From a virus: 64,000 bases of DNA. Where the stretch lies: IMG/VR virus record IMGVR_UViG_3300031784_000026, positions 3,012 to 67,011 of that record; one strand, written 5' to 3'. The position numbers and the translations under genes were made by a program. The stretch's first letter is position 1. Each line of letters opens with the position of its first letter. Shown piece after piece: positions 573 through 61,780 of the stretch. Under the pieces are notes generated by a model. That model was not told the origin of the DNA, made no database searches, and worked only from the letters and a program-made list of their open reading frames with translations.

Positions 573-575
573 GGC

Positions 576-2200: not shown

Positions 2201-2568
2201 TACTCAACAACTTTCCAAGACGTTGTGGCTTCATCCCATGTGTATAGCTTACCGTCTGTAGGATAAGGTGTCGGTGCTTCCCATGTCCAATTATCATGAT
2301 TCAATGTCCATGAAGAGAAAGGCTGCGGCGCATAGAACACGTCATGAGACGGGTCATACGTGAAACCAACGCCAGCGTAGTTGCCGCGCAAAGCAGGCTT
2401 GCCGCTTGGCTCGTTGCTGTCAGGATTGTAATGCACATTGCCGCGTGTGTTGTACGATGTTTGGATCCACGTACCCGGCGAGCTGTCTACAAATGTTTGG
2501 AAAAAATCAGGCTCGGCCACGATGACCTGAACAACTTTTCCATCAACTACTTTTGCAAAATGTCCCAT
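2200..2568 (-). CDS. Conserved Trp/Tyr-rich 122 aa protein accompanying Gly-rich genes
   Basis: MGHFAKV...WIQTSYN...RGNYAG...WEAPTPYP; translationally coupled (TAATG) to the next gene; near-identical copy at 63558..63926. Confidence 0.85.
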   Translation of the reverse strand: MGHFAKVVDGKVVQVIVAEPDFFQTFVDSSPGTWIQTSYNTRGNVHYNPDSNEPSGKPALRGNYAGVGFTYDPSHDVFYAPQPFSSWTLNHDNWTWEAPTPYPTDGKLYTWDEATTSWKVVE

Positions 2569-2642
2569 GTTTTCCTCTTTACGCAGTGTAAGAACCGGAA
2601 GAATTAAATGTCAGGATTGTATTGGAGCCAGATGTCGTGATT
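2516..2642 (+). repeat. 127-bp exact direct repeat of the window end (63874..64000)
   Basis: Base-by-base comparison; offset 61,358 bp. Confidence 0.9.
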
Positions 2643-4288: not shown

Positions 4289-5368
4289 TTACCCCAGAGC
4301 GATTGCCAGAGCCACAGCCGTTCCGGCAGGGTCTACTTGAAGACTTGTTTGAGCACCTGACACCGTTGTAGCACCAGTGCCGCCATACGCAATTCCTAAA
4401 ACACCAGACGTGATATCTGATGCTGAAACAGAAGGCGCAATTGTGGATACCGATGTCAGCTGACCCTGTGCGTTTACCGTGATTACTGGAATAGCTGTGG
4501 CAGAGCCATAACTTGTAGCACTGACGCCTGTGTTACTAATGCTGAACGTCGTGCCAGCAAGAGTTAAGCCCGTGCCCGCAGAATAGGTGATCGGTGCGCC
4601 AAACTGAATAAATACAATGTCAGTTGTACCAACCGTGATAGGAAGCGACGTTTGTTGAACCCAAGATGTATTGGCGTTTGTTGTGCCTGCGGTGATGAGA
4701 AAGAAGTCACCGGCATCGATCTGATTAGGACCACTGCCCGCCGTATTAAAATCCGTGGCGCGTGTCATGACCCATGCAGTAGAGCCATTACCGACAGTCG
4801 TGACAGTATACGCACCATTGTAGGGGGCGTTTGTCGAAGTCTCGTTCTTAACAAGAATACGATCATTAACGGAGGGGGTGCTTCCGTCGATGCTCAATGC
4901 GCCGACGGCATTCGCCGTAAGCGTAGCGCCAACACCGCTTGATCCATTATTGTATGTGTACGCTGGCAGCGTAGTTGCTGTGGCATACTTACAGGATTGA
5001 TGAAAGTTCAGACCTTGAGCGGTTGAGTCAACGTAGGTTTTGTTGACCAGATCATACGCACCACTCGGAACCGTGACAGTCGTGCCGCCGGTGATGACAG
5101 GAGATGTCAGCGTCTTGTTGGTGAGCGTCTGCGTTCCTGTCAGTGTCACGACGTTGCTGCTGGTGCTCAACGCACCTGCTGACAGCGTCAGTTCACCGCT
5201 TACAGAAATTTCTTCCGCTGCACCTGTACCCGCAGTAGTACGGCCTAAAAGCCTATTCGTTGCAAGCAACAAATCATGGTCATCGTTCCAGTTCGACGGC
5301 CTGACAATACTAGTGTCAGCGTCGTCCGGTACTGAACTGACGAACTTGTGCTTGAGCGAAACGGTCAT
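4289..5368 (-). CDS. Tail/head fibre protein
   Basis: Thr/Gly/Ser-rich; GTQTLTNKTLTSP, DRILVKNE, YSAGTGLTL and GGTGAT fibre motifs; ends ALAIALG. Confidence 0.75.
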   Translation of the reverse strand: MTVSLKHKFVSSVPDDADTSIVRPSNWNDDHDLLLATNRLLGRTTAGTGAAEEISVSGELTLSAGALSTSSNVVTLTGTQTLTNKTLTSPVITGGTTVTVPSGAYDLVNKTYVDSTAQGLNFHQSCKYATATTLPAYTYNNGSSGVGATLTANAVGALSIDGSTPSVNDRILVKNETSTNAPYNGAYTVTTVGNGSTAWVMTRATDFNTAGSGPNQIDAGDFFLITAGTTNANTSWVQQTSLPITVGTTDIVFIQFGAPITYSAGTGLTLAGTTFSISNTGVSATSYGSATAIPVITVNAQGQLTSVSTIAPSVSASDITSGVLGIAYGGTGATTVSGAQTSLQVDPAGTAVALAIALG

Positions 5369-5840: not shown

Positions 5841-6095
5841 TTAACCCTGTAACAATTGGCTGGCGACGGTCGATCTATCGCACTGAATAGCCTGTTTCAT
5901 GTAATAGAGTATAACCTGCTCGACCTGTTTTTGAAAGGCTCTTGCCTGCTCCGAGATAACCGGGGGAGCGGTGTCAGAGACCTGTACAATTTTCTGTGCA
6001 GCTCGGTTGGCCCAGAACTCCGGCGGGTGGCCGCCATTGGCGGAGGCCACGACATCGACCGAGATTGTGGGCATGTGCATAGCTTGAGTAAACAT
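5841..6095 (-). CDS. Hypothetical protein
   Basis: 84 aa ORF coupled to the upstream gene in the late operon. Confidence 0.65.
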   Translation of the reverse strand: MFTQAMHMPTISVDVVASANGGHPPEFWANRAAQKIVQVSDTAPPVISEQARAFQKQVEQVILYYMKQAIQCDRSTVASQLLQG

Positions 6096-6733
6096 CAGTT
6101 AGCCTTTACCCTAATGAGACCGTCACGGTAAGCATCCACGTCTTCTCGGCCTTCGCCATAGTTCTTGAGACGGGCCAATGCTTCCATGAACCGCTGGTTG
6201 TAGGTGTTCAGGAGATCCGGCTCACCTTTCATAAAGGTGTAGGCTTCCACAAGGCAGCCGTAGAGCAGGGCTTCCTGACCGTAGTTGCTGATCCACGTCC
6301 CGCTCGTCTCCACCGTCAGGCTGGCCGGACGGTAGAAATAGTGCAGTTCCACGCCATAGGTGCTGTTCGGAACGGGAGCCAGAATGAAGTTGTTGATGTC
6401 AAAGAACGCGTAATACTTCGGAACACCGGTAGCCCCGGTAGGATTATATTCCTGAAGGTATTCGACGTCCTTTTGCAGCAAGAAACTGGTCGATCCGTTT
6501 GCCGTAACGGACAAACTGAACGCGTTCAGATAGTCTGATGGAACAGCTAAATACTTGTTACCACTCGTTAAATTAGCCGTCTGGTTCTTGCGGAAGAATT
6601 GCAAATCAACATTGAACAGAATCCGTTCTTCCGTGTTCAGGATGAACTGGTCTATCTGGCTGTTGAAGGTTGTCTCGTCGTACTGTGTCCAATCCTTAAT
6701 GGCCTGAACCAGTGTAGCGTATGTCCATGCCAT
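6095..6733 (-). CDS. Head-tail adaptor-like protein (start re-set to MAWTY at 6733)
   Basis: TYATLVQAI...ILNTEERI...GVPKYY...LLYGCLVEAY pattern of adaptor proteins. Confidence 0.7.
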   Translation of the reverse strand: MAWTYATLVQAIKDWTQYDETTFNSQIDQFILNTEERILFNVDLQFFRKNQTANLTSGNKYLAVPSDYLNAFSLSVTANGSTSFLLQKDVEYLQEYNPTGATGVPKYYAFFDINNFILAPVPNSTYGVELHYFYRPASLTVETSGTWISNYGQEALLYGCLVEAYTFMKGEPDLLNTYNQRFMEALARLKNYGEGREDVDAYRDGLIRVKAN

Positions 6734-8006: not shown

Positions 8007-8573
8007 TTAACACATCTTTCCTTTACCATGACCGCGAGCAGCCATGCCACAACCACGGACCATGCCGCCCTTGGCCTTCTTCATAACGCTGCCGCCACGA
8101 CTCATGGCTTCAGTAGCTTTTGTTTTATATGATTTTCCTTTTGGAAGAACATCATCAGAGCTACCGGGATATTCGTAAGAATAATCTTTGTTGGTAAATC
8201 CATACTTTTGCATTTCTTTACCAAAATCTTCACGGCTTCGACGAAGACCTTCATCAAAATTTTTATCTGCCATTTTGCTTGATGCTTCAGAATCATATTT
8301 TCCGTTATTATAAACGCTAACGGGAAGGCCCATTTTTTGTTTTACACCTTCACTTTGACGTTCATATCTATCTTTATCTTTATTCATTACCTTTGTAACG
8401 TCGCCACCTTCAGCCTTCTTCATGACCATAGGTTTTTCAGGGGTCTTGTAGCCCCCCTCAAGTTTCTTCAAATATTCCGGATCTACTGGAATGTTAGAAG
8501 ATGGGTATTTGGGCTCCTTCTTAGGGGCCATATCAGCAGGACGACGGGGAGGGAGTGGGATATTCTTCGGCAT
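8007..8573 (-). CDS. Basic protein with xxGG motifs
   Basis: 188 aa; KAEGG, MSRGG, KAKGG and C-terminal RGCGMAARG. Confidence 0.65.
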   Translation of the reverse strand: MPKNIPLPPRRPADMAPKKEPKYPSSNIPVDPEYLKKLEGGYKTPEKPMVMKKAEGGDVTKVMNKDKDRYERQSEGVKQKMGLPVSVYNNGKYDSEASSKMADKNFDEGLRRSREDFGKEMQKYGFTNKDYSYEYPGSSDDVLPKGKSYKTKATEAMSRGGSVMKKAKGGMVRGCGMAARGHGKGKMC

Positions 8574-8574
8574 A

Positions 8575-8736
8575 TTACTTACCCTTCTTTTTTGACATAC
8601 CAGCTTCTGACAAGGCTATGGCAATCGCTTGCTTACGGCTCTTGACCATTGGACCCTTCTTGCTACCGGAGTGAAGTTTACCGGCTTTAAATTCCTTCAT
8701 GACCTTTTGGATCTTGCCGGGCATCTGCTTTTTCAT
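8575..8736 (-). CDS. Small basic protein, DUF6496-like (not in ORF track)
   Basis: Hand translation MKKQMPGKIQKVMKEFKAGKLHSGSKKGPMVKSRKQAIAIALSEAGMSKKKGK. Confidence 0.75.
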   Translation of the reverse strand: MKKQMPGKIQKVMKEFKAGKLHSGSKKGPMVKSRKQAIAIALSEAGMSKKKGK

Positions 8737-18049: not shown

Positions 18050-20392
18050 TTACCTACCCATTTTGGTAGCGGCTACACGCTGCATAGCAGTGTTAGCGCG
18101 GAGTTGAGCAATGTCTTCCATCGATTGGATCTTTTCTTTGTCCAATGCAGTCTTCGTCTGAAGCTTCTGGGCATCAAGAGCAATCCGGCTTTGGTCAGAC
18201 TGAGCCTTCTGCTGAAGTTCCTGTGCCTTCAATTGCAGGTTCTGCTGCTGCAACTGCACAAGCGGGTCAGGACCTTGCTGAGGCATAAGCTGCTGCATCA
18301 ACTGCTGAGTCATCATGGCTTCAATCTTGGCGACCTCGACTTCCATCTCTTGCGGCTGCAACATGACATTGATGCCCTGCTGCTGCATTTGGATGACAAC
18401 CTGCTGCTGCGCTGCGAGAGACAGGTGCTCGAGGACGTGGGACATCAGCACGCCATACACTGCCGGTGACATTTGAATCAGCGGCGTGAGCATGAAAGTG
18501 ATGTGGGTTTGGATGTGGGCCATGTGGTCCTGTTCCGGGAAAACCTTCAACGGTTGACCACCGGACGGGATTGTCAGGGACTTTGCATTCTCCAAGGCAG
18601 GGCTTTGCGGCATCGGCTGCGGAGGAGGGGGCAACACAAGGTCTACGTCGGTGACGCCCAGTGCCGAATACATCCGGCGATACGCCTCATACATATTGTG
18701 CATCTGCGGCGCTTGCTGGGCGAGCTGCAATTGCTGTTGAGCCAGCGCAATACGCTGGGTCATCGAGAAGATATTGGGGTCGCTAACCGGAATAACGTCG
18801 ATCTTGCCGTCAAAGTCTTGGGCCTTGACCGAAGCATCACCGCCTTGGACCTCGTACGGGTACACAGGCGGTAGATATTCAGCAAAAATGTCCGCGAGTA
18901 GCTTCAATTCCTGCTTTTGAGCGAAGTGCATCCGTTTGTGGACCGCCGACATGACCCGGGAGCCACGTTCCAACAGGGCGATTGTAGTACCGACCGGCAA
19001 TTCTTGGTTGGACTCGCCCATTCCAAGGTCTGTCGTACCGATAAACTTCTCGGCTGCGCCAATACAGAAGCCTAAAAGCTGGAAAAGTGTGGCCGACGGC
19101 TCTTTATAGGGGAGCGGAAGCAGAGATTGCTGCAAATCGCCACCCGGAGCGTCAACATCTCGCCATTCCCCCGGCTGAATCGGGGTTTGATCCTCGATTC
19201 TCAGTCCTCTTGCCTTAAATCCCGCAGGTAAATTCGCAAGAGTGCCAGCGTCAACCAACTGCCGAAGAATAGAGGTAGAGCTCCGACTGAGATTGCCCAA
19301 AAGATGAACGAGTCCAAATCCATAGAACCCCATTCCTGACAAGAATTTGTATTGAACAAAGAACTGCCTCTTCTTTTTGAGCGGATCATCCTCACGCCAG
19401 TTGCGGCGGATGGACAAAATCTTACGGGAACCGGTGTCATAGGTCACAATGTAGGGGATTTGGAGACCTGTGACCTCTCCTTCCTCATCTTTGTCCTCGA
19501 AACCTTCGATATCGAGGTAACAATGACACTCGTGAAGCGTATATGAGTTAGGGTCATCTGGTTTTTCGATGCCCGTCGTCCGATCTACGCGCTCTTGAAT
19601 CTCATCTTTGTCCCCTGCCGATGGCTTACCGAGGTCGATGTCGCGGTAAAAGCCGTTTACTTGCAGGCGCTTAAGTTCATTTGGAGAGTAGCTAAGCACG
19701 TGAGTGACCCGTTCAGCGGTCAAAAGATCACGAGCAGCATACGGAACGATCAAATCCTTGGGCAAAATGTAGGGACTGGTCGCCCGGCCAAGGTAATCGT
19801 CGTAGTAAACCTTCTTGAAAGCCGACCCACCGTACCCGACAAAGTACAACATCTGGTCGAAATCGGGGTCATATTCTTCCATGACCTCCGTAATCTGATA
19901 GTTCATGTAAGTTTTGATGCGATCTGCCTGTGCTTCACGCTCCGGTGTCACCTTTCCGATGATCTGTGTGCGTACCGGACCACCTGCTGGCAGCAATTCC
20001 TTGTAGGCCTGAGCCTGAAACTGGGTCACAGCCTCGTTGAGGATGGGGTGCGTAACACCCGTCGAACCCTCAAACGGCTCTGTGCGGTCTTCATAGTTGA
20101 GACCGAGCAAGACCATGCCCTGCTCGTAGATCTTTTTCCACTCGTCGCGGCTTCGATCATCTTCCGTGATCAGCTCGTCAAGGTCATCGACGATTTTAAG
20201 TAGAAGGCGTTCATCCAAAACTTCGGCGAGGTTTGCGCCGAACGGGATGTCCATCTCGGCAACGTCCACGCTCTCTTGTTCTTCGACCTCTGCCTCATCC
20301 ATCTCGGAGGAATCGTTCTGGTCCTTGAGGAGGTCTTCGATGTCTGAGTCGTCAGACTTTTCAATATTGTTGAACGGGGAAATAGCCATCAA
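18050..20392 (-). CDS. Portal protein
   Basis: 780 aa after terL; HPILNEAVTQFQAQAYKELLPAGGPVRT, GSAFKKVY, GTLANLPAG, Gln-rich C-terminal barrel. Confidence 0.9.
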   Translation of the reverse strand: MMAISPFNNIEKSDDSDIEDLLKDQNDSSEMDEAEVEEQESVDVAEMDIPFGANLAEVLDERLLLKIVDDLDELITEDDRSRDEWKKIYEQGMVLLGLNYEDRTEPFEGSTGVTHPILNEAVTQFQAQAYKELLPAGGPVRTQIIGKVTPEREAQADRIKTYMNYQITEVMEEYDPDFDQMLYFVGYGGSAFKKVYYDDYLGRATSPYILPKDLIVPYAARDLLTAERVTHVLSYSPNELKRLQVNGFYRDIDLGKPSAGDKDEIQERVDRTTGIEKPDDPNSYTLHECHCYLDIEGFEDKDEEGEVTGLQIPYIVTYDTGSRKILSIRRNWREDDPLKKKRQFFVQYKFLSGMGFYGFGLVHLLGNLSRSSTSILRQLVDAGTLANLPAGFKARGLRIEDQTPIQPGEWRDVDAPGGDLQQSLLPLPYKEPSATLFQLLGFCIGAAEKFIGTTDLGMGESNQELPVGTTIALLERGSRVMSAVHKRMHFAQKQELKLLADIFAEYLPPVYPYEVQGGDASVKAQDFDGKIDVIPVSDPNIFSMTQRIALAQQQLQLAQQAPQMHNMYEAYRRMYSALGVTDVDLVLPPPPQPMPQSPALENAKSLTIPSGGQPLKVFPEQDHMAHIQTHITFMLTPLIQMSPAVYGVLMSHVLEHLSLAAQQQVVIQMQQQGINVMLQPQEMEVEVAKIEAMMTQQLMQQLMPQQGPDPLVQLQQQNLQLKAQELQQKAQSDQSRIALDAQKLQTKTALDKEKIQSMEDIAQLRANTAMQRVAATKMGR

Positions 20393-21852
20393 TAATAAAT
20401 CCTTCTGCCGACCTTCGTCTCACCTTCTATCACAAGATCTTCCGGATGCGACAGGAATCCTCCCTGCCGAAACCGCATCAACGCTTGTGTGGCGGCGTCA
20501 CAGTGGTCGTCATGTTCTCCAAATGGAAATGCGGCCATCTCTTCGATGACCTCTTCGGCCCAGCTCGTTTCAGGATACCACACCAAACCTGCCTCGAATA
20601 GGGGGGCCACGGAGTTCATTCTGACGTGTTTATCATTTCCCCGGCTTGGAGAAAAGTTCACGACCGGGATGCCCGTTGCCCGGAGTTCCTGTGTCAAAGG
20701 ATGACCGGCAGCCTTCGCTTCGATCAAGACCGTTTCCGGATCCCAGTACTTATACTCGTCGTGGGCAATCTTCTTCAGTTCCGGAAACTCCCACCGACCC
20801 TTCTTGGCATCAAGGAGGATCACGTTCGGCGGTCCACCTTCCGAAGGATAGAAGACGCCCCATGTCTGGATCGCGCTAAAGTCAGCCGTCCGGGTTTTAA
20901 GGAACGCCGTGTCGTAGCTTTGCATTACATACTGCAAAGGCGGGATGCTTCCCTTCTTCCAAGGTTTCCACCAGTCGCGCTTGATGATCGCCGCCGTATC
21001 CGAGGTCGGCGTCTGCATATACTGCGCGTTCCACTGGGTGAGCGGAATCGAAGCTTTGACGCGCTCCAACTCCTCGATCTTCCAGTATTGCGGCCACAAA
21101 GGTTTGCCGCTCGGAAGAATCGCCGGAAACTCAATGACTTCCCACTGATCAGCCTTCGGGTCATTCGCCGACTGACGCAGCAAGCGAGCCGTCAGGTCGT
21201 TCTCACCCCACCGGGTCATGACTAGGATAATAGTACCGCCCGGCTGTAACCGTTGTCTCGGACCCGAACTATACCACTCCCACGCGTTTTCCAGCGCAGT
21301 CGGTGACATTGCATCTTGTTCTGAATGAGGATCATCAACGATAAATAAGTCTGCGCCACGTCCTGCGATGGATCCCCCCACACCGGCTGCGTAATATTCT
21401 CCACCATCATCTGTCTCCCACCGGTATGCAGCCTTACTGTCAGACCTGAGCTTTGTTTGAAAGATCTTCTTATACTCCTCAGACTCCATCAGGTTCTTAA
21501 CCTTGCGACCAAACCTCACAGACAAATCTGCTGTATGCGTCGCCTGCATAATCTTCAAATGCGGATTCCTACCAATCATCCACGCCGGAAACAGATAGCT
21601 CGCAAACTCGGATTTCGTATGACGCGGAGGGAGATTAATGATTACCCGCTTCAGCTCGCCGCGAGCGATAGCCTCAAACTTCTCCGCAATATCTCGATGA
21701 TGCTTGCCAGCAATGAAGCTCGGCCACACGAGTTTCACAAACTCCAGAAACTCTTTGCGAGCCAAAGCTGTTGTATCAATGACCCCGAGACGTTCGCCTA
21801 ACTGATAGGCCCGAACCATAATCTCTTGAGGTAATTTCTCTTCATCGGTCAT
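20389..21852 (-). CDS. terL: Terminase large subunit
   Basis: Walker A variant LPPRHTKSE, Walker B FIVDDP, MTRW, nuclease SYDTA and HDDHCDA. Confidence 0.95.
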   Translation of the reverse strand: MTDEEKLPQEIMVRAYQLGERLGVIDTTALARKEFLEFVKLVWPSFIAGKHHRDIAEKFEAIARGELKRVIINLPPRHTKSEFASYLFPAWMIGRNPHLKIMQATHTADLSVRFGRKVKNLMESEEYKKIFQTKLRSDSKAAYRWETDDGGEYYAAGVGGSIAGRGADLFIVDDPHSEQDAMSPTALENAWEWYSSGPRQRLQPGGTIILVMTRWGENDLTARLLRQSANDPKADQWEVIEFPAILPSGKPLWPQYWKIEELERVKASIPLTQWNAQYMQTPTSDTAAIIKRDWWKPWKKGSIPPLQYVMQSYDTAFLKTRTADFSAIQTWGVFYPSEGGPPNVILLDAKKGRWEFPELKKIAHDEYKYWDPETVLIEAKAAGHPLTQELRATGIPVVNFSPSRGNDKHVRMNSVAPLFEAGLVWYPETSWAEEVIEEMAAFPFGEHDDHCDAATQALMRFRQGGFLSHPEDLVIEGETKVGRRIYY

Positions 21853-21919: not shown

Positions 21920-22402
21920 ATGGGCGATCAACCCCTAGACCTATATGACATCGCGTGGTTCTTCTCAAAAGTAGACGTTAAAGACAAACGAGACTGCTGG
22001 GAGTTCAGAGGACACAAGGCCGTTGGCGGATATGGGAGCGTAACGATCCGAGGCCAACATTACTACACCCACCGATTATCATACGAGATATTCTGCGGGG
22101 AGATCCCCAAAGATCTGGTCATCCGGCACATGTGCGATAACGCCGCGTGCTGTAACCCCTGCCATCTGACCACTGGCACTCAAAGAGATAACGTCGTCGA
22201 CCGGATGATCCGTGGCCGCTCTGCCGTCGGATCCCGGAACGGGCGATCCAAGCTTACAGAAGACGAGGTCCGGCAAATCCTCGATGACCCGAGATCAGCC
22301 CCGGCAACTGCAAAGGCATATGGTGTAGGCAAGGATACCATCCTCCGTATACGCAGAGGGCAGTCTTGGGCGCACGTTACTTCGGACGACGTCGCAAAAT
22401 AG
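21920..22402 (+). CDS. HNH homing endonuclease with C-terminal HTH
   Basis: CWEF...HRLSY...IRHMCDNAACCNPCHL...DN; GSRNGRSKLTEDEV tail. Confidence 0.9.
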   Translation: MGDQPLDLYDIAWFFSKVDVKDKRDCWEFRGHKAVGGYGSVTIRGQHYYTHRLSYEIFCGEIPKDLVIRHMCDNAACCNPCHLTTGTQRDNVVDRMIRGRSAVGSRNGRSKLTEDEVRQILDDPRSAPATAKAYGVGKDTILRIRRGQSWAHVTSDDVAK

Positions 22403-22677: not shown

Positions 22678-22953
22678 TCAAAAGAGCTTGATCTCGTCCA
22701 TGATCAGAGGACAACCGTCAAATGACGTTTGACAGTTGTAGCCGATAAACTCGGAAGCTTCGTCCTCTGTCATCCCGTCTCTTACCATAAGCACATCGAT
22801 CATCTTATCGAAAGAATATATCACCCGAAGGCTGTTATTTATCTCGGTCGTACCAATGATCGCGTCATCGAAACCATCCATAAGGACGGCTGTCATACCG
22901 AAGTGTTCTGCGAATTCAGCTACTGCTTCACGGAGGGGATGGGGCTCTGTCAT
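22678..22953 (-). CDS. Conserved phage protein
   Basis: DGFDDAIIG...IYS..KMIDVL..DGMTEDEASEFI.YN. Confidence 0.75.
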   Translation of the reverse strand: MTEPHPLREAVAEFAEHFGMTAVLMDGFDDAIIGTTEINNSLRVIYSFDKMIDVLMVRDGMTEDEASEFIGYNCQTSFDGCPLIMDEIKLF

Positions 22954-23390
22954 GATATCCTCTGAAATTTGTCCATTGAAATAAGGCAACACGGTTCGAT
23001 GTCCTGATCATCCCCGCGATCCTTCCGACCGGCAATGGTCAGAGGATAGAGGGGAAAGGATTCCACAGCTTTAACAGTGTGCATATAGATCCCGTCTGTC
23101 AGCTTGAGCGCCAACACAAAGGCTATACGAAACTGGTCATGCCACTTCTGGGCTTCCAAGATCTTGTGGGCAGAGATAATCACGCCCCCAAAAGAGTCGA
23201 GCTTGTCGTACGAGTAATTACGGCATTTGATCTCTGCGATAGCCACAACGGTCTTGTCGCGGCACAAGGCGTAATCCAAGGCAAAGTAGTTCTTTAGCTT
23301 GTGGACATCGACGCCCCACTTCTCACCGATGACCTTTGCCACCGAAGCTTCGTTGTCCAGATCCTGTTGGGTTTCATATGTCGGGCGCAC
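22950..23390 (-). CDS. PD-(D/E)XK nuclease-like protein
   Basis: LDY...AEIKCR motif; GRKDRGDDQDIEP. Confidence 0.7.
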   Translation of the reverse strand: MRPTYETQQDLDNEASVAKVIGEKWGVDVHKLKNYFALDYALCRDKTVVAIAEIKCRNYSYDKLDSFGGVIISAHKILEAQKWHDQFRIAFVLALKLTDGIYMHTVKAVESFPLYPLTIAGRKDRGDDQDIEPCCLISMDKFQRIS

Positions 23391-23691
23391 TCTGTCCTCT
23401 TTTTATTATACCCCGGGCCGCCGGGGGACCCTATGAACAGACCGTAAAAAGGGGGTCGGGGTCAATATCAAAAGTTTTATTTCCATATAACTTTCCGTGA
23501 AAAATCGTGTTTTTAGTCGAGTGCGTGCGATGGCAGGGGTCAATTAGGGGGGTCTGGGGTCAACGGTTCGGTCGAAAGCGGATCTGGATTCTTGGAAAGG
23601 GACCCGCGTCGGGGATAGGTCAGCATTGTTGACCTGATGCGCGACAGGCGAGGTATGCGCCAGACGCATGGCAGGTATGCATAAATAGTTA

Positions 23692-23720
23692 TTGACTATC
23701 CTTTGACTATGTGTTAGTCT
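23692..23720 (+). promoter_or_regulatory. Sigma70-type early promoter
   Basis: TTGACT-17-TAGTCT with TG extension. Confidence 0.6.
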
Positions 23721-23777
23721 TCTGGTGTTAGATCGATGGTGGTCTAACACGGCTGTTTTACATTGTGGAGAAATACT

Positions 23778-24128
23778 ATGAACAGCGATAACATCACGCG
23801 CGTCGCGCATGACCTTAGCAGACTGCTTGACGAAATGCTTTACGAGATCCGGAAAACAGAGCTTCTGGCAAAGAGCCTAGAGGATCGGATCAGGGAGCTA
23901 GAGCTGAAGGCGGAGGTTTTATCCTTGGCGGATCGCAAGGGATATAACATGACGGACCTTGGAAACATGGTCGATGAGATATCGAAGGAAGGTCTGCTCG
24001 ACGACTACATCAACGAGCGGATCTCAGATCATCCCGACGTCGCAAGCGAAGACAGTATTCGCGAGTGGGCGCGAGACGAAGCTCAAGAGGTCTTGAGTAA
24101 CGCGAGCTTCGAGATCACGGTTAACTAA
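23778..24128 (+). CDS. Acidic early protein
   Basis: GGAG RBS, ATG 23778, followed by a hairpin. Confidence 0.75.
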   Translation: MNSDNITRVAHDLSRLLDEMLYEIRKTELLAKSLEDRIRELELKAEVLSLADRKGYNMTDLGNMVDEISKEGLLDDYINERISDHPDVASEDSIREWARDEAQEVLSNASFEITVN

Positions 24129-24135
24129 TAAAAGA

Positions 24136-24168
24136 AAGGGGAGAGAAATCTCCCCTTGACTTTTTCTT
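24136..24168 (+). terminator. Terminator overlapping the next -35 element
   Basis: AAGGGGAGA-GAAA-TCTCCCCTT followed by a T-rich tract. Confidence 0.7.
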
Positions 24169-24183
24169 TATAGTTGATAGATT
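24156..24183 (+). promoter_or_regulatory. Sigma70-type early promoter
   Basis: TTGACT-16-TAGATT with TG extension. Confidence 0.55.
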
Positions 24184-24214
24184 GATATTGTCCCAAAGCA
24201 GAGGAGAAAGTGCA

Positions 24215-24412
24215 ATGGACACATTCACGGCGATCAGCCTGATCGAAGGTCTTGAAGAAGCAGAAGAATTCGAGATCATCGAAGCTTGGCAATACCTGAT
24301 CGACACCGGCATTGTCTGGAGCTTGCAGGGTTTCTACGGTCGCATGGCACGGGATCTTATTGAGACCGGCGTATGCTACCTCAACAATAGCGAAGAAGAA
24401 ATCGCAGTCTAA
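24215..24412 (+). CDS. Small conserved phage early protein
   Basis: WQYLIDTGIVWSLQGFYGRMARDLIETG; GAGGAG RBS. Confidence 0.8.
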   Translation: MDTFTAISLIEGLEEAEEFEIIEAWQYLIDTGIVWSLQGFYGRMARDLIETGVCYLNNSEEEIAV

Positions 24413-24417
24413 TTGAG

Positions 24418-24447
24418 AGCGGGGGCGCAAGCTCCCGCTTTTTCTTT
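24418..24447 (+). terminator. Rho-independent terminator
   Basis: AGCGGGGGC-GCAA-GCTCCCGCT-TTTTCTTT. Confidence 0.75.
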
Positions 24448-24498
24448 GTCCTTAATCAATCAATGTCCTATTAGGACTTTACCGGCGCGAGGCGAATT

Positions 24499-24672
24499 AT
24501 GATTACTAAAGCACAACAACAGGCGATACTGAGGGTTTACTTGCGAGATACCACAGAAGCGCAGTCTTATTTGCAATTCCGTCGCAGGATAGTGCGAGGG
24601 TTTGATTGTCTTATGCTCCCTTGGAAAGGCATGTGGCTTGGGATCGAACTTGACGGTTACACCCACAGTTAA
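24499..24672 (+). CDS. Small conserved phage protein (not in ORF track)
   Basis: MITKAQQQAILRVYLRDTTEAQSYLQFRRRIVRGFDCLMLPWKGMWLGIELDGYTHS; GAGG RBS. Confidence 0.75.
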   Translation: MITKAQQQAILRVYLRDTTEAQSYLQFRRRIVRGFDCLMLPWKGMWLGIELDGYTHS

Positions 24673-24764
24673 GACTTTACCGGCGCATTGAGACTTTACC
24701 GGCGTGACTTCTCCACACGCCCCTGCCCCTCGCAAATTTATTTTTGCGGGGGGCTTTTTATTTG

Positions 24765-24793
24765 TTGACTTTTATTTGACTTGCTCCTATATT
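24765..24793 (+). promoter_or_regulatory. Sigma70-type early promoter, preceded by a hairpin (24725-24759)
   Basis: TTGACT-17-TATATT. Confidence 0.65.
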
Positions 24794-24825
24794 GATCTGG
24801 TAACGCAAACAAAGGGAGAAAGCCT

Positions 24826-25059
24826 ATGCGTTCTATTTCCACTATCGCTCGTGAAATCCGCGCAGACTGGACTAAGCCTTACTTTGGCGCAGTCCCTTAC
24901 TTAAGCGCAATGCAGTCCCTCGATAGCATTGAGGATAACTATTATGAGGATAGCGGCAAATCCGTTGTGCTCTACTTTCTCGCGAACGCGCAGACTTGGA
25001 AAGGCGAGAAAGCCCGTTCGATAAAGGCTGAGCTAAAGAAGCTCTGCGGTATCAAATAA
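24826..25059 (+). CDS. Small conserved phage protein
   Basis: IAREIRADW.KPYFGAVPYLSAM...YFLANAQTWKGE; GGAG RBS. Confidence 0.8.
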   Translation: MRSISTIAREIRADWTKPYFGAVPYLSAMQSLDSIEDNYYEDSGKSVVLYFLANAQTWKGEKARSIKAELKKLCGIK

Positions 25060-25066
25060 GATTAGC

Positions 25067-25345
25067 ACTTTACCGGCGCGGGCCCGCTTCTCCACAGGCG
25101 GGCCCGTTTTCTTATGACAAGGAGAAAGTATATGGACATTGCCGAAGCCCTAGAGATTGTAATTAATCTTGCCCGTCAAAACATACCGTCAGATCCCGAA
25201 CTAGAGGAGCTTGCCGCTCGTTACGCCGAAGCCTGCAACGTGGTCGAGGATATGGCAGTCAATCAATTCAGCGAAGATTAGAACTTTACCGGCGCAGTCG
25301 GACTTTACCGGCGCGGGCCCGCTTCTCCACAGGCGGGCCCGTTTT
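25067..25345 (+). repeat. 44-bp exact direct repeats (25067-25110, 25302-25345), each motif + terminator
   Basis: ACTTTACCGGCGCGGGCCCGCTTCTCCACAGGCGGGCCCGTTTT twice. Confidence 0.9.
25132..25281 (+). CDS. 49 aa acidic microprotein (not in ORF track)
   Basis: MDIAEALEIVINLARQNIPSDPELEELAARYAEACNVVEDMAVNQFSED; AAGGAG RBS. Confidence 0.7.
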   Translation: MDIAEALEIVINLARQNIPSDPELEELAARYAEACNVVEDMAVNQFSED

Positions 25346-25351
25346 TATTTG

Positions 25352-25379
25352 TTGACTTTTATTTGACTTCTGTTATTCT
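25352..25379 (+). promoter_or_regulatory. Sigma70-type early promoter
   Basis: TTGACT-16-TATTCT with TG extension; upstream context shared with the 24765 promoter. Confidence 0.6.
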
Positions 25380-25410
25380 TGGCGGGTCAATTCCACAGAA
25401 AGGGGATATC

Positions 25411-26058
25411 ATGACAACTCTCAAAGAAGCGCAAAGCGCAGGCAAGATATCAATAGGTAATACAAAAATGCCGGGCTCTACCTTCGCAGTCTCGGCAAAG
25501 CACTGCAACGTAGGCGGCAAGCTTGCCGATCTAGAGGGGTCGGTTTGTTATGAATGTTATGCCCTAAGGCTTCAAAATTTCCGGCCTACCGTCAACGCCG
25601 GATGGACGGGCAACCTAGACAAGGCAAACCGCATGATCAAAACCGATCCGGCGCGATGGGTCGCCTACATCACCTTCCAAATCAATAAAGCTTACGAGAA
25701 AACCGGCGAACCATATCACCGTTGGTTTGACAGTGGAGACTTGCAATCTGTCGAGATGCTAGAGGCGATATGCGAGGTCGCACGGGCTACGCCCCAGATC
25801 CGCCATTGGCTCCCGACGCGTGAGACAAAAATCATTAATGACTTTACCGGCTCGATCCCAGACAACCTAATCGTGCGGGTCTCGAGCCCGATGATCGACG
25901 ACAAGCCAATCAATAAATACATATGGACTAGCACGGTCCACAAGAACAGTGAACCGGTCGGACATATTTGTCCGGCCCGTCATCAAGGAAACGCGTGCGG
26001 CTCTTGCCGTGCCTGTTGGTCAGATGACATCCGAAACATCTCCTACCCCCTCCACTAG
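25411..26058 (+). CDS. Gp88-like Cys-rich (radical-SAM-like) protein
   Basis: NTKMPG, CX13CX2C-YA, RWFDSGD, HWLPTRE, C-terminal CPA...CGSCRACW. Confidence 0.8.
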   Translation: MTTLKEAQSAGKISIGNTKMPGSTFAVSAKHCNVGGKLADLEGSVCYECYALRLQNFRPTVNAGWTGNLDKANRMIKTDPARWVAYITFQINKAYEKTGEPYHRWFDSGDLQSVEMLEAICEVARATPQIRHWLPTRETKIINDFTGSIPDNLIVRVSSPMIDDKPINKYIWTSTVHKNSEPVGHICPARHQGNACGSCRACWSDDIRNISYPLH

Positions 26059-26102
26059 GGGGTAGCTCTTCTTTGCTTATTGATACTTTACCGGCGTGCG
26101 TG

Positions 26103-26510
26103 CTACTTTACCGGCGCGACGTGGATGCCTCCCTTTTGTCCGTCGCCAACTGCCCACGGTTGAGCGCATGCGCTCCCGTGGGTCTTTTTCCAGAATGTTT
26201 CCCGTGAAAAGTTATGACAAGATAAATGACATGACCGGCACAGCCAGAGAACATCTGTCGGTCTACCATAATCCTCATGGTGCATCTCGGCGTCTGTACC
26301 GGCGCACACGAAACAATACTGGGCGTCAAGCTTTCCGCGTCTCTTGTAGACGTTGGCATGAGATCGAGCCTTCACCTTTTTCTTTTGCTCGTCTGAGAGA
26401 TCCCCGTAAGGGGTTCGATGCTCGCGCATATATGCGGCATGGCAGGCCTTACAGTATCTCTGCCCGTGCCGGTCGTTTTCATTCCCGCATTTTGAGCATG
26501 TCGTTTTCAT
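26103..26510 (-). CDS. Zn-finger / HNH-like protein
   Basis: CSKC, CKACH, CFVC...HHEDY...WLCRSCH; GGAG RBS. Confidence 0.65.
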   Translation of the reverse strand: MKTTCSKCGNENDRHGQRYCKACHAAYMREHRTPYGDLSDEQKKKVKARSHANVYKRRGKLDAQYCFVCAGTDAEMHHEDYGRPTDVLWLCRSCHLSCHNFSRETFWKKTHGSACAQPWAVGDGQKGGIHVAPVK

Positions 26511-26581
26511 GGGTCGCTCCGTGGAACATGTGGAACATTTTCCTAACACGCATTTGTTCCACGGTAAAGTGTTTTAAGACT

Positions 26582-26995
26582 TTACCGGCGCAGGGCAATG
26601 AGCCGTGATTCAAGGAAATCGAGCAAGGTCTGCCACTTTACCGGCGCGGATAACACTAAATCTGGGGTAATTTCAGGGTTTTCCACTAGATCTAGTAGCT
26701 TTGAGCATGAAAAAATTTCTACAACCTCTGCCCGTGGACGGCTGACCAAGTTGAACACGTTAGGAAAAAATGCCGCTCTCCTTGTTTGCCAAGCAATTTG
26801 GGCGGGACGCCACAAAGAGACCGGTTGGATCGCCTTGCGAGATTCTACCTTGTTTTCGAGCCAAAATTCGCCGAAAGGGGCGGCTCCGTTGACGTCTGGT
26901 ATTCCGACGCCTGCCCACGCCTCAACCCTTGTCCAATGGATCGTCTCCGTCGCTTTCTTCAAGGACTGATACATCTTCTTCTCGGTTTGGAACAA
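26582..26995 (-). CDS. VRR-NUC/Holliday junction resolvase-like PD-(D/E)XK nuclease
   Basis: RVE...GIPDV...FWLENK...RPAQIAW. Confidence 0.75.
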   Translation of the reverse strand: MFQTEKKMYQSLKKATETIHWTRVEAWAGVGIPDVNGAAPFGEFWLENKVESRKAIQPVSLWRPAQIAWQTRRAAFFPNVFNLVSRPRAEVVEIFSCSKLLDLVENPEITPDLVLSAPVKWQTLLDFLESRLIALRR

Positions 26996-27515
26996 GGTCG
27001 ATCTCCTTCGGGGGAAGCATCGCCTGCTTCAATGCAGGGTATTGCTCATGCAGTTTCTGAAGCTCGGCGAGCACCTCTTCACGGGACATCTGGTCGATCT
27101 TGCCCACAAGGATTTCAGAGCGGCTGATGTAGAGGCCTGCCGCCATGCCGCGTTGCTTCTCTGCCGCGACAGCAGGGCCAAGGGCCTTCTGTTCAATGGC
27201 GAGATCACGGATGCGAGCCAGTTGGGTGATGTGGCTCTCGTAGGTAACCTCATGCTGTTTGGCGAGGCTTTTCTCAAGCTCACGGATCCGGTCGATGACT
27301 TTGGGAAAGTCGCGACCGTTCATAAAACGAGAGGCCACGACAGCGGCGTCTTGATAGCCCGCCTTCTCTGCGGCTTCTGTCTGAGTCATGAAGCCGAAGA
27401 CGAAGTTGCGGCAAAAGTCCTCCTGCATCTGGGTCAGGCCCGACTCAAGCTTCGTCAGCTTAGTCTTGGGAGGGGCGACAGCCTTCACATAGTGGGTCTG
27501 CTTGCGATCCTTCAC
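26922..27515 (-). CDS. terS: Terminase small subunit
   Basis: LTQMQEDFCRNFV...TEAAEKAGY HTH; LARIRDLA...AVAAEKQRGMAAGLY. Confidence 0.8.
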   Translation of the reverse strand: MKDRKQTHYVKAVAPPKTKLTKLESGLTQMQEDFCRNFVFGFMTQTEAAEKAGYQDAAVVASRFMNGRDFPKVIDRIRELEKSLAKQHEVTYESHITQLARIRDLAIEQKALGPAVAAEKQRGMAAGLYISRSEILVGKIDQMSREEVLAELQKLHEQYPALKQAMLPPKEIDLVPNREEDVSVLEESDGDDPLDKG

Positions 27516-27624
27516 GATGTTCTCTTTCTGTTCTGAATTTCCCAGTAAGGCATTCTAGCCAAAGAAAAATTTTATTTCCACAGAGAAAAATCCTGTCCAC
27601 ATGCGCGGGGGGAACTTATTTGGT

Positions 27625-27878
27625 CTATCACATTTTATGATAGCTTCCTGTAAAAAAGATAGCATATTCTCTTGTATTATCAATGGGTTATCAATTCTAT
27701 CATTTCTATCATGCCGAATCCACCTTTTGTGTGTCCAAAAATTTTTTAACGCCGCGCGCGCGCAGATTCAGTTTGGAAAAACACACTTTTTTAAAATCGA
27801 CGATATTTATGATAGAAGTGATAAGGTATTTGAAATCATTCATCTTTTCCCTATCAAAGTTAACAACAAATTAGATAG
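27625..27878. other. AT-rich divergent intergenic region with dyad symmetry, candidate replication origin
   Basis: About 11 YTATCA/TGATAR/AGATAG units; 16-bp inverted repeat around (GC)5. Confidence 0.55.
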
Positions 27879-28017
27879 ACCTCACTTCCCTTATAGGCAG
27901 TTTGTCAAAGGACAGAGGACCTCTAACCACCCACCACTAACCACCCCCGCCAACAATTCCCCTCGATTTATTGGCGGCCCCCAGTTACAATCTGACCACT
28001 GCAATAGGAGGCCTGCC

Positions 28018-28206
28018 ATGACCGATCCCAAGATCTTCACCGTCTACAACCTCGTGACCTATGTGATGGAAGTAGAGGCCGCCAACGAGGACGAAGCCTT
28101 GGAGATGGCCCGCTTCTCGGACGAGAGCGAGTGGGAATTCGTGGGCGAGGACTTCGACGTGGACGACAACGCAGGCAACGAGGACGAATTCGAACTCCCG
28201 TTCTGA
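28018..28206 (+). CDS. Acidic microprotein (real start within the listed 201 aa ORF)
   Basis: AGGAGG RBS before MTDPKIF; VEAANEDEA motif. Confidence 0.75.
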   Translation: MTDPKIFTVYNLVTYVMEVEAANEDEALEMARFSDESEWEFVGEDFDVDDNAGNEDEFELPF

Positions 28207-30549: not shown

Positions 30550-30785
30550 CAGAGGACAGAAGCAAATCAAGAAAGCTTCTCGATAAGCTTGCCGATCTCA
30601 TGAACGGCTATCTTAATGAGGCAACGACCGATGAAGAGAGGGAGGCCGCAATTGCTACGGGTCTTCAGACTCTTGTGAATTTCGCGATCCTGTCGTCTTG
30701 CACGGCAGGTCTTACAGAAGACGAGATGCACGATGTCGTGCATGAGATTTACTCGATGTACAATGAAGGTAGAGCAGATGACTAA
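30546..30785 (+). CDS. Hypothetical protein
   Basis: ATGA coupling. Confidence 0.55.
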   Translation: MTEDRSKSRKLLDKLADLMNGYLNEATTDEEREAAIATGLQTLVNFAILSSCTAGLTEDEMHDVVHEIYSMYNEGRADD

Positions 30786-31167
30786 AGAAGAATTGGAACG
30801 GCTTGTTCGAGCGTATGAGGAAGAACTGGATTATTACCGTAGCTTGTTTTCGGTGGATCAATTCAGCTCTCGCCTCAAGGATTACTTCAATCTCACCGAT
30901 CAGTTGGCGGCGGCGTTGAAGCTTTTCTTGGACTCAGGCCGCGTGTCGAACGAGGCTTTGACAAAGACCGCAGAACTCTTTGGCAAGAAGGCAGAGCACG
31001 ATGCAGACTACTCAAAGATTGTTGTCTGGCGCTTGCGTAAGGCTCTCGAAGACTACGGCTTTGTGATCGAGAACAGTTATGGTTGGGGCTACCGCATGGA
31101 TCCCGATCAAGTGAAAGAGCTGAAGGATATCGTGAACAACAAGAAGAAAGGGAAGAAGTCTAAATGA
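30778..31167 (+). CDS. OmpR/CtrA-type winged-helix DNA-binding protein without receiver domain
   Basis: KIVVWRLRKAL...IENSYGWGYRM matches the trans_reg_C recognition helix and wing. Confidence 0.7.
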   Translation: MTKEELERLVRAYEEELDYYRSLFSVDQFSSRLKDYFNLTDQLAAALKLFLDSGRVSNEALTKTAELFGKKAEHDADYSKIVVWRLRKALEDYGFVIENSYGWGYRMDPDQVKELKDIVNNKKKGKKSK

Positions 31168-31688
31168 CCGTATCCTACATTGATAACTACAAAACGATCC
31201 GCAACAAGTTTCGCCCGCCGGTGAGGCCTGTCGTGATTCAAAGGACAGAGGTCAAAGAACAACCCGCACCTGTCGTTGTACTTGAGCCAGAGCAGATCGA
31301 AGAGCTTCCGGAGATCGAGCGTTGGGCGCGATATGGTTCGGGCGACAAGAACTATCGCGACATGATGAGTGACGCGAGAACACTTCGCACCGAAGCAGAG
31401 AAGCGTGGCATCAGCTTCTATACCAAACTCATGGAAGGTATGCCGACCGTATCGAACCGCCTGAAGCTTGCGACGGTGGTCGTGCTTGAGGAATACGCGA
31501 TTGATTGGAAGACACTGTTTGACAAGGACCGGTCTCGTTTCAAGACAGCGATACGGTGGAAGGTCTTTGACGCATTGCGCGAAGAGGGCCTGTCGTTTTT
31601 AGAAATCGCCAGACTTTGTGATGTGGATCACACGTCGGTGATGCACGGTCTTAAGAGAATTAGGGGAGAGTACAATGTCGGACGTTAA
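31164..31688 (+). CDS. Protein with DnaA domain IV-like HTH
   Basis: GLSFLEIARLCDVDHTSVMHGLKRI resembles DnaA SLxxIGxxFxxRDHTTVxHA. Confidence 0.7.
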   Translation: MTVSYIDNYKTIRNKFRPPVRPVVIQRTEVKEQPAPVVVLEPEQIEELPEIERWARYGSGDKNYRDMMSDARTLRTEAEKRGISFYTKLMEGMPTVSNRLKLATVVVLEEYAIDWKTLFDKDRSRFKTAIRWKVFDALREEGLSFLEIARLCDVDHTSVMHGLKRIRGEYNVGR

Positions 31689-34087: not shown

Positions 34088-34222
34088 GAAAGATCATCCG
34101 ATACGAGAAGCACGGCGACGAACTCGTTGCCTTGTGTGAAGACGACAACGGTGACCGTTGGTATATACTTATCAGCAAAGGTGGTAAGTTTACTTTTTAA
34201 ATCTCTTAGAAAGGAAAGAGAC

Positions 34223-34669
34223 ATGATGTACTACGATCCAAAACAAATGGAGCCCATTGATGATATGGTTTACTCCATTGAACCTGATGCAGAAACTATT
34301 CTTAAGAAAGCTATAGACATTTACAAGGAACAATTCCTTACGGTTAAGGAACAAGAAAAAACAATTCGCGTTCTCAAGGCAACGATTGATTTCATAACCA
34401 ATGAAACCGTAATTTTGAGAAGGAAATACAAGTCCCTTATGGGGGAAAAGGTAGAAACCTTCGAGAAGTCAATTGAAGAGCTTGAGCTTAGCACTCGTGT
34501 TTACAATGTTTTTTTGAACATGAATGTTAAGACTTTAGGAGATGTGTACGTTCTTAAGAAGAGCGAACTTTTACGGCAACCAAACTTTGGCGTAACGTCT
34601 CTTAGGGAAGTGAAAGAACTCATGAAGTTGCATGGGCTAACCGATTGGGGATACGAGGAACAACGGTAA
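34223..34669 (+). CDS. Coiled-coil + RNA polymerase alpha-CTD-like protein
   Basis: SIEELELSTRVYNVF...TLGDV....SELLRQPNFGVTSLREVKELM. Confidence 0.85.
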   Translation: MMYYDPKQMEPIDDMVYSIEPDAETILKKAIDIYKEQFLTVKEQEKTIRVLKATIDFITNETVILRRKYKSLMGEKVETFEKSIEELELSTRVYNVFLNMNVKTLGDVYVLKKSELLRQPNFGVTSLREVKELMKLHGLTDWGYEEQR

Positions 34670-57765: not shown

Positions 57766-57806
57766 GAAACGGTCCTCTTACATGCAAAAGCAGTATACTC
57801 TTTATG

Positions 57807-58439: not shown

Positions 58440-58457
58440 GGCCCTACCCTAAACCAG

Positions 58458-59396: not shown

Positions 59397-59404
59397 GTCT
59401 CACC

Positions 59405-60625: not shown

Positions 60626-60634
60626 AAATGTACC

Positions 60635-61777: not shown

Positions 61778-61780
61778 GGC

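Follow-up and report, generated by a model that had tools for sequence, protein, structure and literature searches.

What is the role of a short word that is repeated in one direction only between the two terminase genes of a phage, and which protein, if any, reads it? This question is raised by a 64,000-nucleotide stretch of viral DNA, hereafter the window, which covers bases 3012-67011 of the 67,011-base record IMGVR_UViG_3300031784_000026 in the IMG/VR database. The word is the 12-mer ACTTTACCGGCG, here called the box, which recurs within an island of small genes. An initial annotation, made from the sequence alone, had located this array between the genes for the small and large terminase subunits, and the location is correct, with TerS encoded at 26922..27515 and TerL at 20389..21852, both on the - strand. 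The phage is an uncultured, podovirus-like freshwater relative of the HTVC023P-type pelagiphages, and its TerL protein is 57-63% identical to those of HTVC027P, HTVC023P, 023Pt_psg01 and DSL-LC04. The public sequencing runs that contain the sequence are labelled freshwater or lake metagenomes or, in the case of 9 of the 18 best runs, fungus metagenome, and no RNA run was listed among them. We suggest that the array is probably an undescribed, putative docking signal for a protein.

A search of both strands of the window at up to one mismatch identified ten perfect copies of the box and one copy with a single mismatch at 24476-26646, all on the + strand (starts at 24476, 24674, 24693, 25067, 25283, 25302, 25841, 26085, 26105, 26579 and 26635). 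The expectation from dinucleotide shuffles was 0.15 matches, and 11 matches were reached in none of 100 shuffles. The imperfect copy is the one at 25841, in which the last G is replaced by T. Over the entire record, the word occurs 10 times in the forward and 0 times in the reverse direction, with all perfect copies confined to the island, and the reversed control word gave no match on either strand. Allowing two mismatches added two matches in the interval, at 26293 (+ strand) and at 26559 (- strand, an inverted partial copy), and ten matches outside it, which were scattered on both strands. Thus, the counts in the window and in the whole record agree with the number and orientation of copies first reported and with the absence of a perfect copy elsewhere. 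The three tandem pairs, described as 19-20 bp apart, are indeed spaced by 19, 19 and 20 bp.

All 11 copies run in the same direction as the + strand genes, and their placement relative to gene ends was found to be exactly as first annotated. The first, single copy (24476..24487) follows the terminator of a DUF7417 gene and lies 11 nucleotides (nt) 5' of the start codon of a gene for a 57-amino-acid (aa) protein. The first tandem pair, at 24674 and 24693 (24674..24704), begins 1 nt past the stop of this gene at 24672 and lies 20 nt ahead of a terminator. Another single copy (25067..25078) begins 7 nt past the stop of a 77-aa gene at 25059 and touches a terminator stem, with which it makes up the left arm of the direct repeat on either side of a 55-aa gene. 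The second pair, at 25283 and 25302 (25283..25313), begins 1 nt past the stop of the 55-aa gene at 25281 and also touches a terminator stem. The one-mismatch copy (25841..25852) is written into the codons DFTG of the GP88 gene and is retained in the relative of the L014 type; it is possibly a coding coincidence. The third pair, at 26085 and 26105 (26085..26116), is positioned between the GP88 terminator and a second terminator, and its copy at 26105 overlaps the stop of an HNH gene on the - strand, the product of which ends in APVK. In the junction cluster, one copy (26579..26590) overlaps the stop of a resolvase-like gene on the - strand (product ending in LRR), and the last copy (26635..26646) is located within the codons A-P-V-K-W of the same gene. 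This last copy is retained in every relative with the same class of word, class A, and changes together with the other copies.

The borders of the site were examined in an alignment of 67 class A sites from 8 arrays. A T at position -4 carries 1.7 bits of information and the C and G at positions +13 and +14 carry 1.4 and 1.1 bits, respectively, all three outside the pattern used for the search, while the information falls to approximately 0 bits on both flanks beyond the site. The full site is approximately 18-20 bp, consisting of the T at -4, the 12-mer and the following C and G, with sharp borders. Such borders resemble those of a protein-binding site rather than those of a block of recombinational homology.

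The position of several copies between a stop codon and a terminator, in the orientation of the transcripts, would also be compatible with a signal read in RNA, in the 3' untranslated part of early transcripts, for instance as the target of an RNA-binding antiterminator, of a pairing RNA or of a nuclease that would take off the protective hairpin. In the L016, L018 and L030 lineages, the GC-rich half of the box forms, in our reading, the 5' arm of the terminator stem. Furthermore, our promoter scan found no promoter belonging to the 55-aa gene, which thus needs read-through of a terminator located behind a box. However, folding of six stretches of RNA revealed no fold common to the word, which was unpaired or variably paired, and two of the six box stretches folded no better than shuffled sequences (z -0.45 and -0.64). 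Strong folds were observed only at terminators (z -5.6, -3.8 and -2.9), and a search of Rfam gave three matches, all far below the gathering score. The pair at 26085/26105 is located beyond the GP88 terminator, and the copies at 26579 and 26635 are beyond the last terminator on the + strand. The constant spacing of 19-20 bp, together with the tandem 9- and 11-bp clusters in other word classes (G and E, below), points to duplex DNA. An RNA-level signal is therefore quite unlikely in our estimate.

Relatives of the locus were gathered by searches with TerS and GP88, and are referred to by L numbers. Five IMG/VR contigs contain the box in tandem pairs, with flanks that are 72-93% identical to the window and a word that is perfect. 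Class A arrays occupy the same slots in every lineage, with boxes behind the DUF7417 gene, the 77-aa gene and GP88, 4-6 clustered copies in the gap from GP88 to the resolvase gene, and a final copy within the codons of the latter. What varies from lineage to lineage is the word. It is ACTTTACCGGCG in the window, L010 and L014, ACTT[TT/GA/AT]CCGGCG in L016, L017, L018 and L030, ACTTTACAGGCG in L031 and ACTTTACCGGCT in L032. The copy in the resolvase codons changes alike, by a synonymous change of the proline codon in L031 and by a change from alanine to lysine in L032. This concerted change suggests that the word co-evolves with a reader, or that gene conversion operates on it while selection acts at the level of the DNA.

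Loci in which TerS is 50-56% identical have other words, with the same polarity and in the same interval downstream of terS and the resolvase gene. The words are ..GCATCTAAGGCCCGCG in class B (with the variant GGACCGCG in L121), ..GCATCAAAAGCCCGCG in class C and ACACTGGCGATTCT.. in class D, and class G has 9-bp tandem units similar to GGATCTATC; words of this wider clade are also written ..ATCTAAGGCCCGCG and ..ATCAAAAGCCCGCG. Class E is an 11-bp tandem word in two loci with a TerS identity of 44%. A 9-mer with 5-10 copies, and none on the other strand, was identified in 19 of 30 downstream intervals, whereas at least five copies of a 9-mer were found in none of 20 upstream intervals and shuffled sequences gave a maximum of 4. 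Seven further loci displayed a class B-variant or class G cluster when mismatches were allowed, and no repeated word was seen in two short downstream intervals. The words of classes A, B and C have a common build, with an ATTGC-like flank, an AT-rich hexamer and a GC-rich tail ending in CGCG, and look like diverged versions of one ancestral site. In every class examined, boxes cluster at the resolvase gene's 3' end, beside terS, and class G has this cluster only, while class D again has copies behind three + strand gene ends. The class D sub-word TTCTGTCGA also occurs in 3-4 more copies beyond terS, on the same strand and without the rest of the box (L123 8044-9428; L124 3926-5059).

Among still more distant loci, a group with approximately 40% TerS identity, including pelagiphage-like contigs, contains recurrent and partly tandem 7-bp words such as GCTTCAAGC. 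In six of these contigs (L155, L167, L170, L173, L177 and L183) the words are like the arrays of the cultured phage HTVC027P (L019), in which tandem 7-bp GCTTGNN arrays are located on both sides of gp33, at 4999-5135, 5889-5946 and 6219-6246. In DSL-LC04 (L020), a GC-rich stretch at 8410-8684 with short GGCCCGTG-like repeats is located just upstream of terL. The pattern that would speak against a dedicated system, an even spread over the genome and absence from syntenic relatives, was not observed, since the copies are confined to 2.2 kb and the relatives carry arrays. The claim that selection acts on the DNA rather than on the proteins is sustained by the sharp borders, the single polarity, the concerted change that includes the copy in codons and the replacement of the word in distant relatives.

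The comparison with relatives also revealed that genes are gained and lost at the boxes. The 57-aa gene comes with one extra copy of the box where it is present, in the window and in the L014 type only, and the 55-aa gene, found in no relative, lies between identical repeats of box plus terminator. An extra gene in L018 is flanked by a 26-bp repeat that contains the box, and an 84-aa gene in L030 is situated between two boxes, with a third inside its codons. Finally, the HNH-type gene at 26103..26549 is missing from a contig of run X19, which joins 26189 to 26575, so that only its right border is at a box. With these five variable genes flanked by boxes (on the right side only for the HNH-type gene), the suggestion that the boxes act as recombination points for cassette exchange has gained support. 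No match to Phage_integrase or Resolvase, representing tyrosine and serine recombinases, was found in the record, which makes turnover by recombination between the repeats more likely than turnover by an integron-like enzyme. Likewise, the attC sites of integron cassettes, which are imperfect palindromes, differ from the box, which is asymmetric and has no conserved fold.

The closest parallel for the turnover is provided by the PeSL elements of T4-type phages. According to passages of two papers (PMC2839356; PMC4122927), these consist of a host-type early promoter and a terminator stem-loop, are repeated in the hyperplastic region before small orphan genes, and bound the gene gains and losses between close relatives. 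As in the PeSL cassettes (Arbiol et al. 2010; Comeau et al. 2014), the island has sigma-70-like promoter sites (24156, 24765 and 25352) next to predicted terminator hairpins (24415, 24725, 25078, 25313 and 26043), and its indels between close relatives are bounded by repeats. Unlike them, it has the 12-mer as an extra element with sharp borders, which is neither promoter nor stem, is sometimes found alone or within codons, is strictly polar and consists of lineage-specific words. The setting also differs, with a single island in a podovirus-like relative of HTVC023P as compared to many regions.

This parallel raises the possibility that there is no dedicated reader, and that the word is simply the conserved core of a PeSL-like terminator-promoter module, homogenized by gene conversion and serving only as homology for recombination. 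The anatomy would fit, since a promoter and stem-loop repeated in a plastic region with bounded indels is what passages of PMC2839356 describe, and longer identical blocks exist in the window, covering box and terminator at 25067 and 25302, and terminator tail and promoter at 24755 and 25343. However, identity stops sharply at the box borders in most copies, boxes without promoter or terminator are found at 24476, 26579 and 26635, and other copies lie inside codons. In addition, relatives of the L016/L018 type have boxes but, in our reading, no promoter between the cassettes, class G has tandem boxes only, and 12 bp is short for homology-driven exchange. We consider the lack of a reader very improbable.

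If the boxes are read by a protein, the word would be a polar, sequence-specific docking site on DNA that evolves together with its reader, lineage by lineage. We tentatively favour the explanation that the boxes are recognition sites for packaging or for the genome end, which also serve as joints for cassette turnover. The heart of the system would be the conserved cluster in which the terS-resolvase operon ends, with its 4-6 boxes in one orientation, as a packaging or genome-end site for which TerS, assigned to the SPP1 G1P family, is the likeliest reader. Recombination between boxes, through which small early genes entered and left the island, would have distributed the remaining copies. 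One box would come with each cassette, such that the repeats double as turnover joints, as do the PeSL elements in T4-type phages. The sequences themselves show the sites, their polarity and position, their concerted change by lineage and the indels that they bound, whereas the binding of a protein to the boxes, the assignment of TerS as this protein and the role in packaging are inferred.

The junction cluster begins approximately 280 bp from the terS stop, and the relatives have 5-6 copies within 170-215 bp. The pac region of SPP1, which has a terminase of this TerS family, has direct repeats, in three groups, at the terS gene, as stated in the relevant passages of PMC4737164. The SPP1/SF6 pac region (G1P; boxA, boxB and boxC) is similar to the array in that short direct repeats are located beside the gene of a Terminase_2-type small terminase and vary between related phages. 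It differs in that the boxes here are located downstream of terS, behind the resolvase gene, rather than across the terS promoter or start, and in that they are 12-14 bp, perfectly kept and present in up to 11 copies over 2.2 kb between genes. In passages of the same paper, the DNA-binding domain of SF6 is reported to have little specificity for the repeats. Another comparison can be made with phage T7, beside the terminal repeats of which short oriented repeat arrays with no known role were reportedly described by Dunn and Studier in 1983. By this account, both phages would have short repeats in the same direction near a DNA-processing site, if the packaging role suggested here is correct, whereas the repeats in the island are longer and punctuate genes. 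We view the finding as a variant of two known kinds of elements, the recognition repeats of terminases and the cassettes of the PeSL type.

Several proteins were considered as the reader. TerS is the only evident sequence-reading protein that is retained beside the cluster, and is the strongest candidate for the reader, judging from its domain and position. Its assignment as a small terminase subunit is based on a match to phrog_51 (E 1.1e-12) and on a borderline match to Pfam Terminase_2 (25.7 bits at a cut-off of 26.1). In its helix-turn-helix (HTH), the core is conserved (..ASRF[LM]NGRD) and the start of the recognition helix is variable. Two other candidates remain, a 174-aa protein with a DnaA-domain-IV-like HTH (31164..31688) and a possible winged-helix protein (30733..31167), which is coupled just upstream of the former. 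The HTH of the 174-aa protein is C-terminal and matches Pfam Bac_DnaA_C at E 0.00045, under the cut-off. The motif DHTS[VI][ML][HY]G (the DHTSVMH stretch) is retained in six relatives despite an overall identity of 32-48%, and the protein is only 32-33% identical in lineages with nearly the same box. An origin-like region described below contains better candidate words for this protein than the boxes.

The GP88 protein was ruled out as reader because classes B-G carry arrays and none of the 33 loci concerned (L115-L147) matched GP88 or DUF7417 (tblastn, E 1e-5). It is central in the class A arrays, where it is 77-87% identical. Among 80 GP88-bearing viral loci, 10 have ACTT-type boxes (eight with CTTNNCCGGCG, plus L031 and L032), and the other 70 have no boxes, or have unrelated tandem arrays or promoter-like words. 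The structural model of GP88 gave weak TIM-barrel-like matches (best Foldseek E 0.07; best VIA Z 6.3). The family has 822 homologues and two invariant cysteine clusters, and in Roseobacter podophages the homologue occupies the first or last position of the record. The HNH protein encoded at 21920..22402 was likewise ruled out, since the L014 type lacks the gene and keeps the array. The resolvase-like protein is unlikely to read sequence, having a minimal 130-aa RecU/Hjc-like nuclease fold. It carries an E...PD...ExK signature and its model (pLDDT 85) matches the Holliday-junction resolvases RecU, PrfA and Hjc (best Foldseek E 8e-4, probability 1.00), while neither a PDB profile search nor NCBIfam gave a match.

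Several observations weigh against packaging and against TerS as the reader. The array extends over 2.2 kb downstream of terS, whereas the pac and cos regions described in passages of PMC4737164 are compact, with that of SPP1 at the start of terS. The distant copies stay perfect, which is unneeded for a single pac site, and the co-orientation of the copies, behind + strand stops and mostly ahead of terminators, is directly predicted by a role linked to transcription. Of the expectation that relatives have a lineage-specific motif in the same interval that co-varies with the TerS HTH, the first part was borne out in class A and in the wider clade. As to the second, the variable HTH residues do not sort by word class, in a comparison of low power between classes that are deep clades. 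A near-identical helix, ..T[E/D][T/K]TAPIAGSRF.., occurs with class B, C and G words, and the window and L031 have the same TerS helix but differ at position 8 of the box. L031 and L032 differ at six positions in the TerS HTH motif. The nucleotide identity of terS between word classes is 73-75%, and no informative recombinants between word class and genes were found. With word classes that are deep clades, the covariation test is weak either way.

The main rival to a packaging role is suggested by the positions behind stops. Here, the boxes would be polar transcription insulators, similar to stoperators, where a phage DNA-binding protein stops or silences host RNA polymerase arriving from the + strand early promoters. 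Such a function would shut the island off and prevent early antisense transcription from entering the late genes and the terS-resolvase operon. The co-orientation and the location behind stops are explained more directly in this way than by packaging. Every copy runs with the + strand genes, copies begin 1-7 nt past three stops and lie ahead of terminators at four of five junctions, and in all classes the boxes are densest where the island converges on the - strand operon. Class D, the word of which is unrelated, again has copies behind three + strand gene ends, and the island has host-type promoters and terminators. The expression of HTVC027P genes, as given in passages of PMC12753301, is also in line with an insulator: gp33, which is homologous to GP88, makes up a temporal class of its own together with gp34. 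Their expression is early to middle, in the case of gp33 apart from the late genes, which fits an island that is transcribed separately from the late packaging genes. In the same passages, gp30, which adjoins terS, is expressed both early and late.

The initial annotation had compared the array to the stoperators of mycobacteriophage L5. According to the portions of PMC9283540 consulted, stoperators are asymmetric, 13 bp long and situated in short intergenic spaces, follow transcription in their orientation and occur throughout the genome. The boxes share with those of Cluster A mycobacteriophages (L5 gp71-type) the asymmetric sites of 12-13 bp, the many copies, the short intergenic location, the orientation tied to transcription and the variation between lineages. 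The analogy fails on one defining point, the confinement to 2.2 kb of a 67-kb record, as compared to more than 20 sites in both genome arms, and is doubtful on a second, since no integrase match was obtained in the record, which makes a temperate phage carrying an immunity repressor less likely. Furthermore, the copies here precede strong terminators, where a roadblock looks redundant, and the conserved core is the cluster beside terS. We found no candidate repressor, although the family of two-domain, monomeric immunity repressors itself was not searched for; HTH proteins are encoded at 30733-31688. Class G, with its single cluster of tandem 9-bp units, is more like the site of an oligomeric DNA binder. 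The terminator and the next promoter are contiguous in the window, such that the gap from stop to terminator may be the sole space in which any site could lie, and the positional argument is weakened accordingly. On balance, insulation of transcription is conceivable but doubtful.

Other DNA transactions were also considered, such as a one-way replication-fork barrier, iteron-like sites for copy control or a pause signal for DNA entry near the genome end. Polar barriers such as the Tus-Ter systems have strict polarity and many copies, and iterons have a spacing that resembles the 19-20 bp of the tandem pairs. The start of the array is approximately 0.9 kb away from a region at 27.5-28.0 kb that resembles an origin, is rich in AT and in dyads and lies at the point where the strands diverge. 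However, this region has its own, different and inverted words, in the window as well as in class B relatives, no initiator gene is located beside the array and no AT-rich unwinding region beside the cluster, which sets the array apart from an iteron-type origin. The region itself (27516-28018) is non-coding and contains a (GC)5 run surrounded by TATCA/TGATAG-like units that are arranged as dyads. A 201-aa open reading frame at 27601..28206 is probably not real, and a small acidic one begins at 28019. In class B relatives, the corresponding region has the inverted word ACCCTGTGA (L139 5569-5828; L116 6573-6844).

The depth of contig words bears on the same question. It was approximately 2-2.5 times that of the flanks over 22869-26913 in three runs (X16, X17 and X18), with values of 12.2 and 10.8 as compared to 4.2-5.5 in X16. 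This doubling from 22.9 to 26.9 kb may reflect a long terminal repeat or sequence that is shared between strains, two situations that contig depth, which cannot count copies, does not separate. At the borders of the step, branch points to other sequence were observed at approximately 22849 and 22883. In the relatives, one end of each of five long partial contigs (12-30 kb) falls between terL and terS, at scattered positions, which suggests a highly variable region that breaks assemblies rather than a fixed genome end. We regard a role in one of these other transactions as unlikely. A more far-reaching proposal is that the boxes and their reader, a single fast-evolving phage protein, constitute a new polar barrier and cassette-capture system, common to HTVC023P-type phages with words specific to each lineage, which would mark cassette ends, block polymerases from one side and allow genes to be gained and lost without an integrase. 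This, too, would be an improbable outcome, and packaging or genome-end recognition combined with cassette turnover is the interpretation that we retain.

The genes around the boxes make up an island set among packaging genes. Its far border is terL, the ATPase domain of which has its best, weak likeness among solved structures to T7-type maturase B (E 0.0025), and which is followed by an SU10-type portal gene (18050..20392, - strand). The HNH endonuclease gene ruled out above adjoins terL on the + strand (21920..22402), and a PDDEXK_14 gene is located between terL and terS on the - strand. The + strand genes of the array region start with the DUF7417 gene (24182..24412; promoter-like site, 24156-24183; terminator, 24415-24442), followed by the 57-aa cassette gene (24499..24672). 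The 77-aa gene (phrog_13953; 24826..25059) has a promoter-like site at 24765-24793 with 10 of 12 matches, preceded by a terminator at 24725-24754, and is retained in all array-bearing lineages in which the locus extends that far. A search of the ESM Atlas with its product gave only unnamed viral clusters and no model. A further terminator-like hairpin at 25078 (+ strand) is followed by the 55-aa cassette gene (25114..25281), and the GP88 family gene (PF17338; 25411..26058) has a promoter-like site at 25352-25379, a terminator upstream (25313-25342) and another at the gene end (26043-26065). With host-type promoters and terminators on the + strand genes, the island is composed of self-contained, early-type cassettes that are antisense within the late packaging genes. 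On the - strand, the HNH-type endonuclease gene (phrog_2340; 26103..26549), present in the window only, is inserted in the junction cluster, and the gene for the PD-(D/E)XK nuclease with the RecU/Hjc-like fold (26582..26974), with box copies in its 3' end, lies directly downstream of terS.

A search of known phage records gave no close match to the region and three weak matches, all within GP88. In HTVC027P and DSL-LC04, the gap between terS and terL likewise consists of approximately 4.7 kb of small genes. Elsewhere in the window, the C-terminal domain of RNA polymerase alpha is clearly recognizable (PF03118, E 7e-15) in the protein encoded at 34127-34669, which lacks the alpha N-terminal domain. 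Tail-fibre-like genes on the - strand at 1-3946 and 55709-63558 have phrog_2295 and phrog_31104 modules in common and contain glycine-rich repeats, in which words such as CCACCGCCGCC are found in as many as 23 copies.

We found no description of such arrays in the literature examined on HTVC023P-type phages, the supplementary material of which may hold more. In PMC9599517, on HTVC023P-type genomes, the terms 'promoter', 'TerS' and 'hypervariable' do not appear, and three passages with 'repeat' concern curli genes. The array is not a peculiarity of a single contig, since the gap from terS to terL holds one-way, lineage-specific words across a clade of uncultured freshwater phages, and in marine relatives, among them the cultured HTVC027P, the corresponding neighbourhood contains short tandem words. 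Phages of the HTVC023P type are reported, in passages of PMC12753301, to be the most abundant group of pelagiphages in the ocean. If the boxes are a packaging signal, they would provide the first handle on DNA recognition by these abundant phages and would explain why genes pile up at this position. If they are polar roadblocks, control of the stoperator type would extend to lytic phages of Gram-negative hosts. In either case, the boxes would be a precise bait for finding the protein that reads them, and HTVC027P offers a cultured system for experiments on the island.

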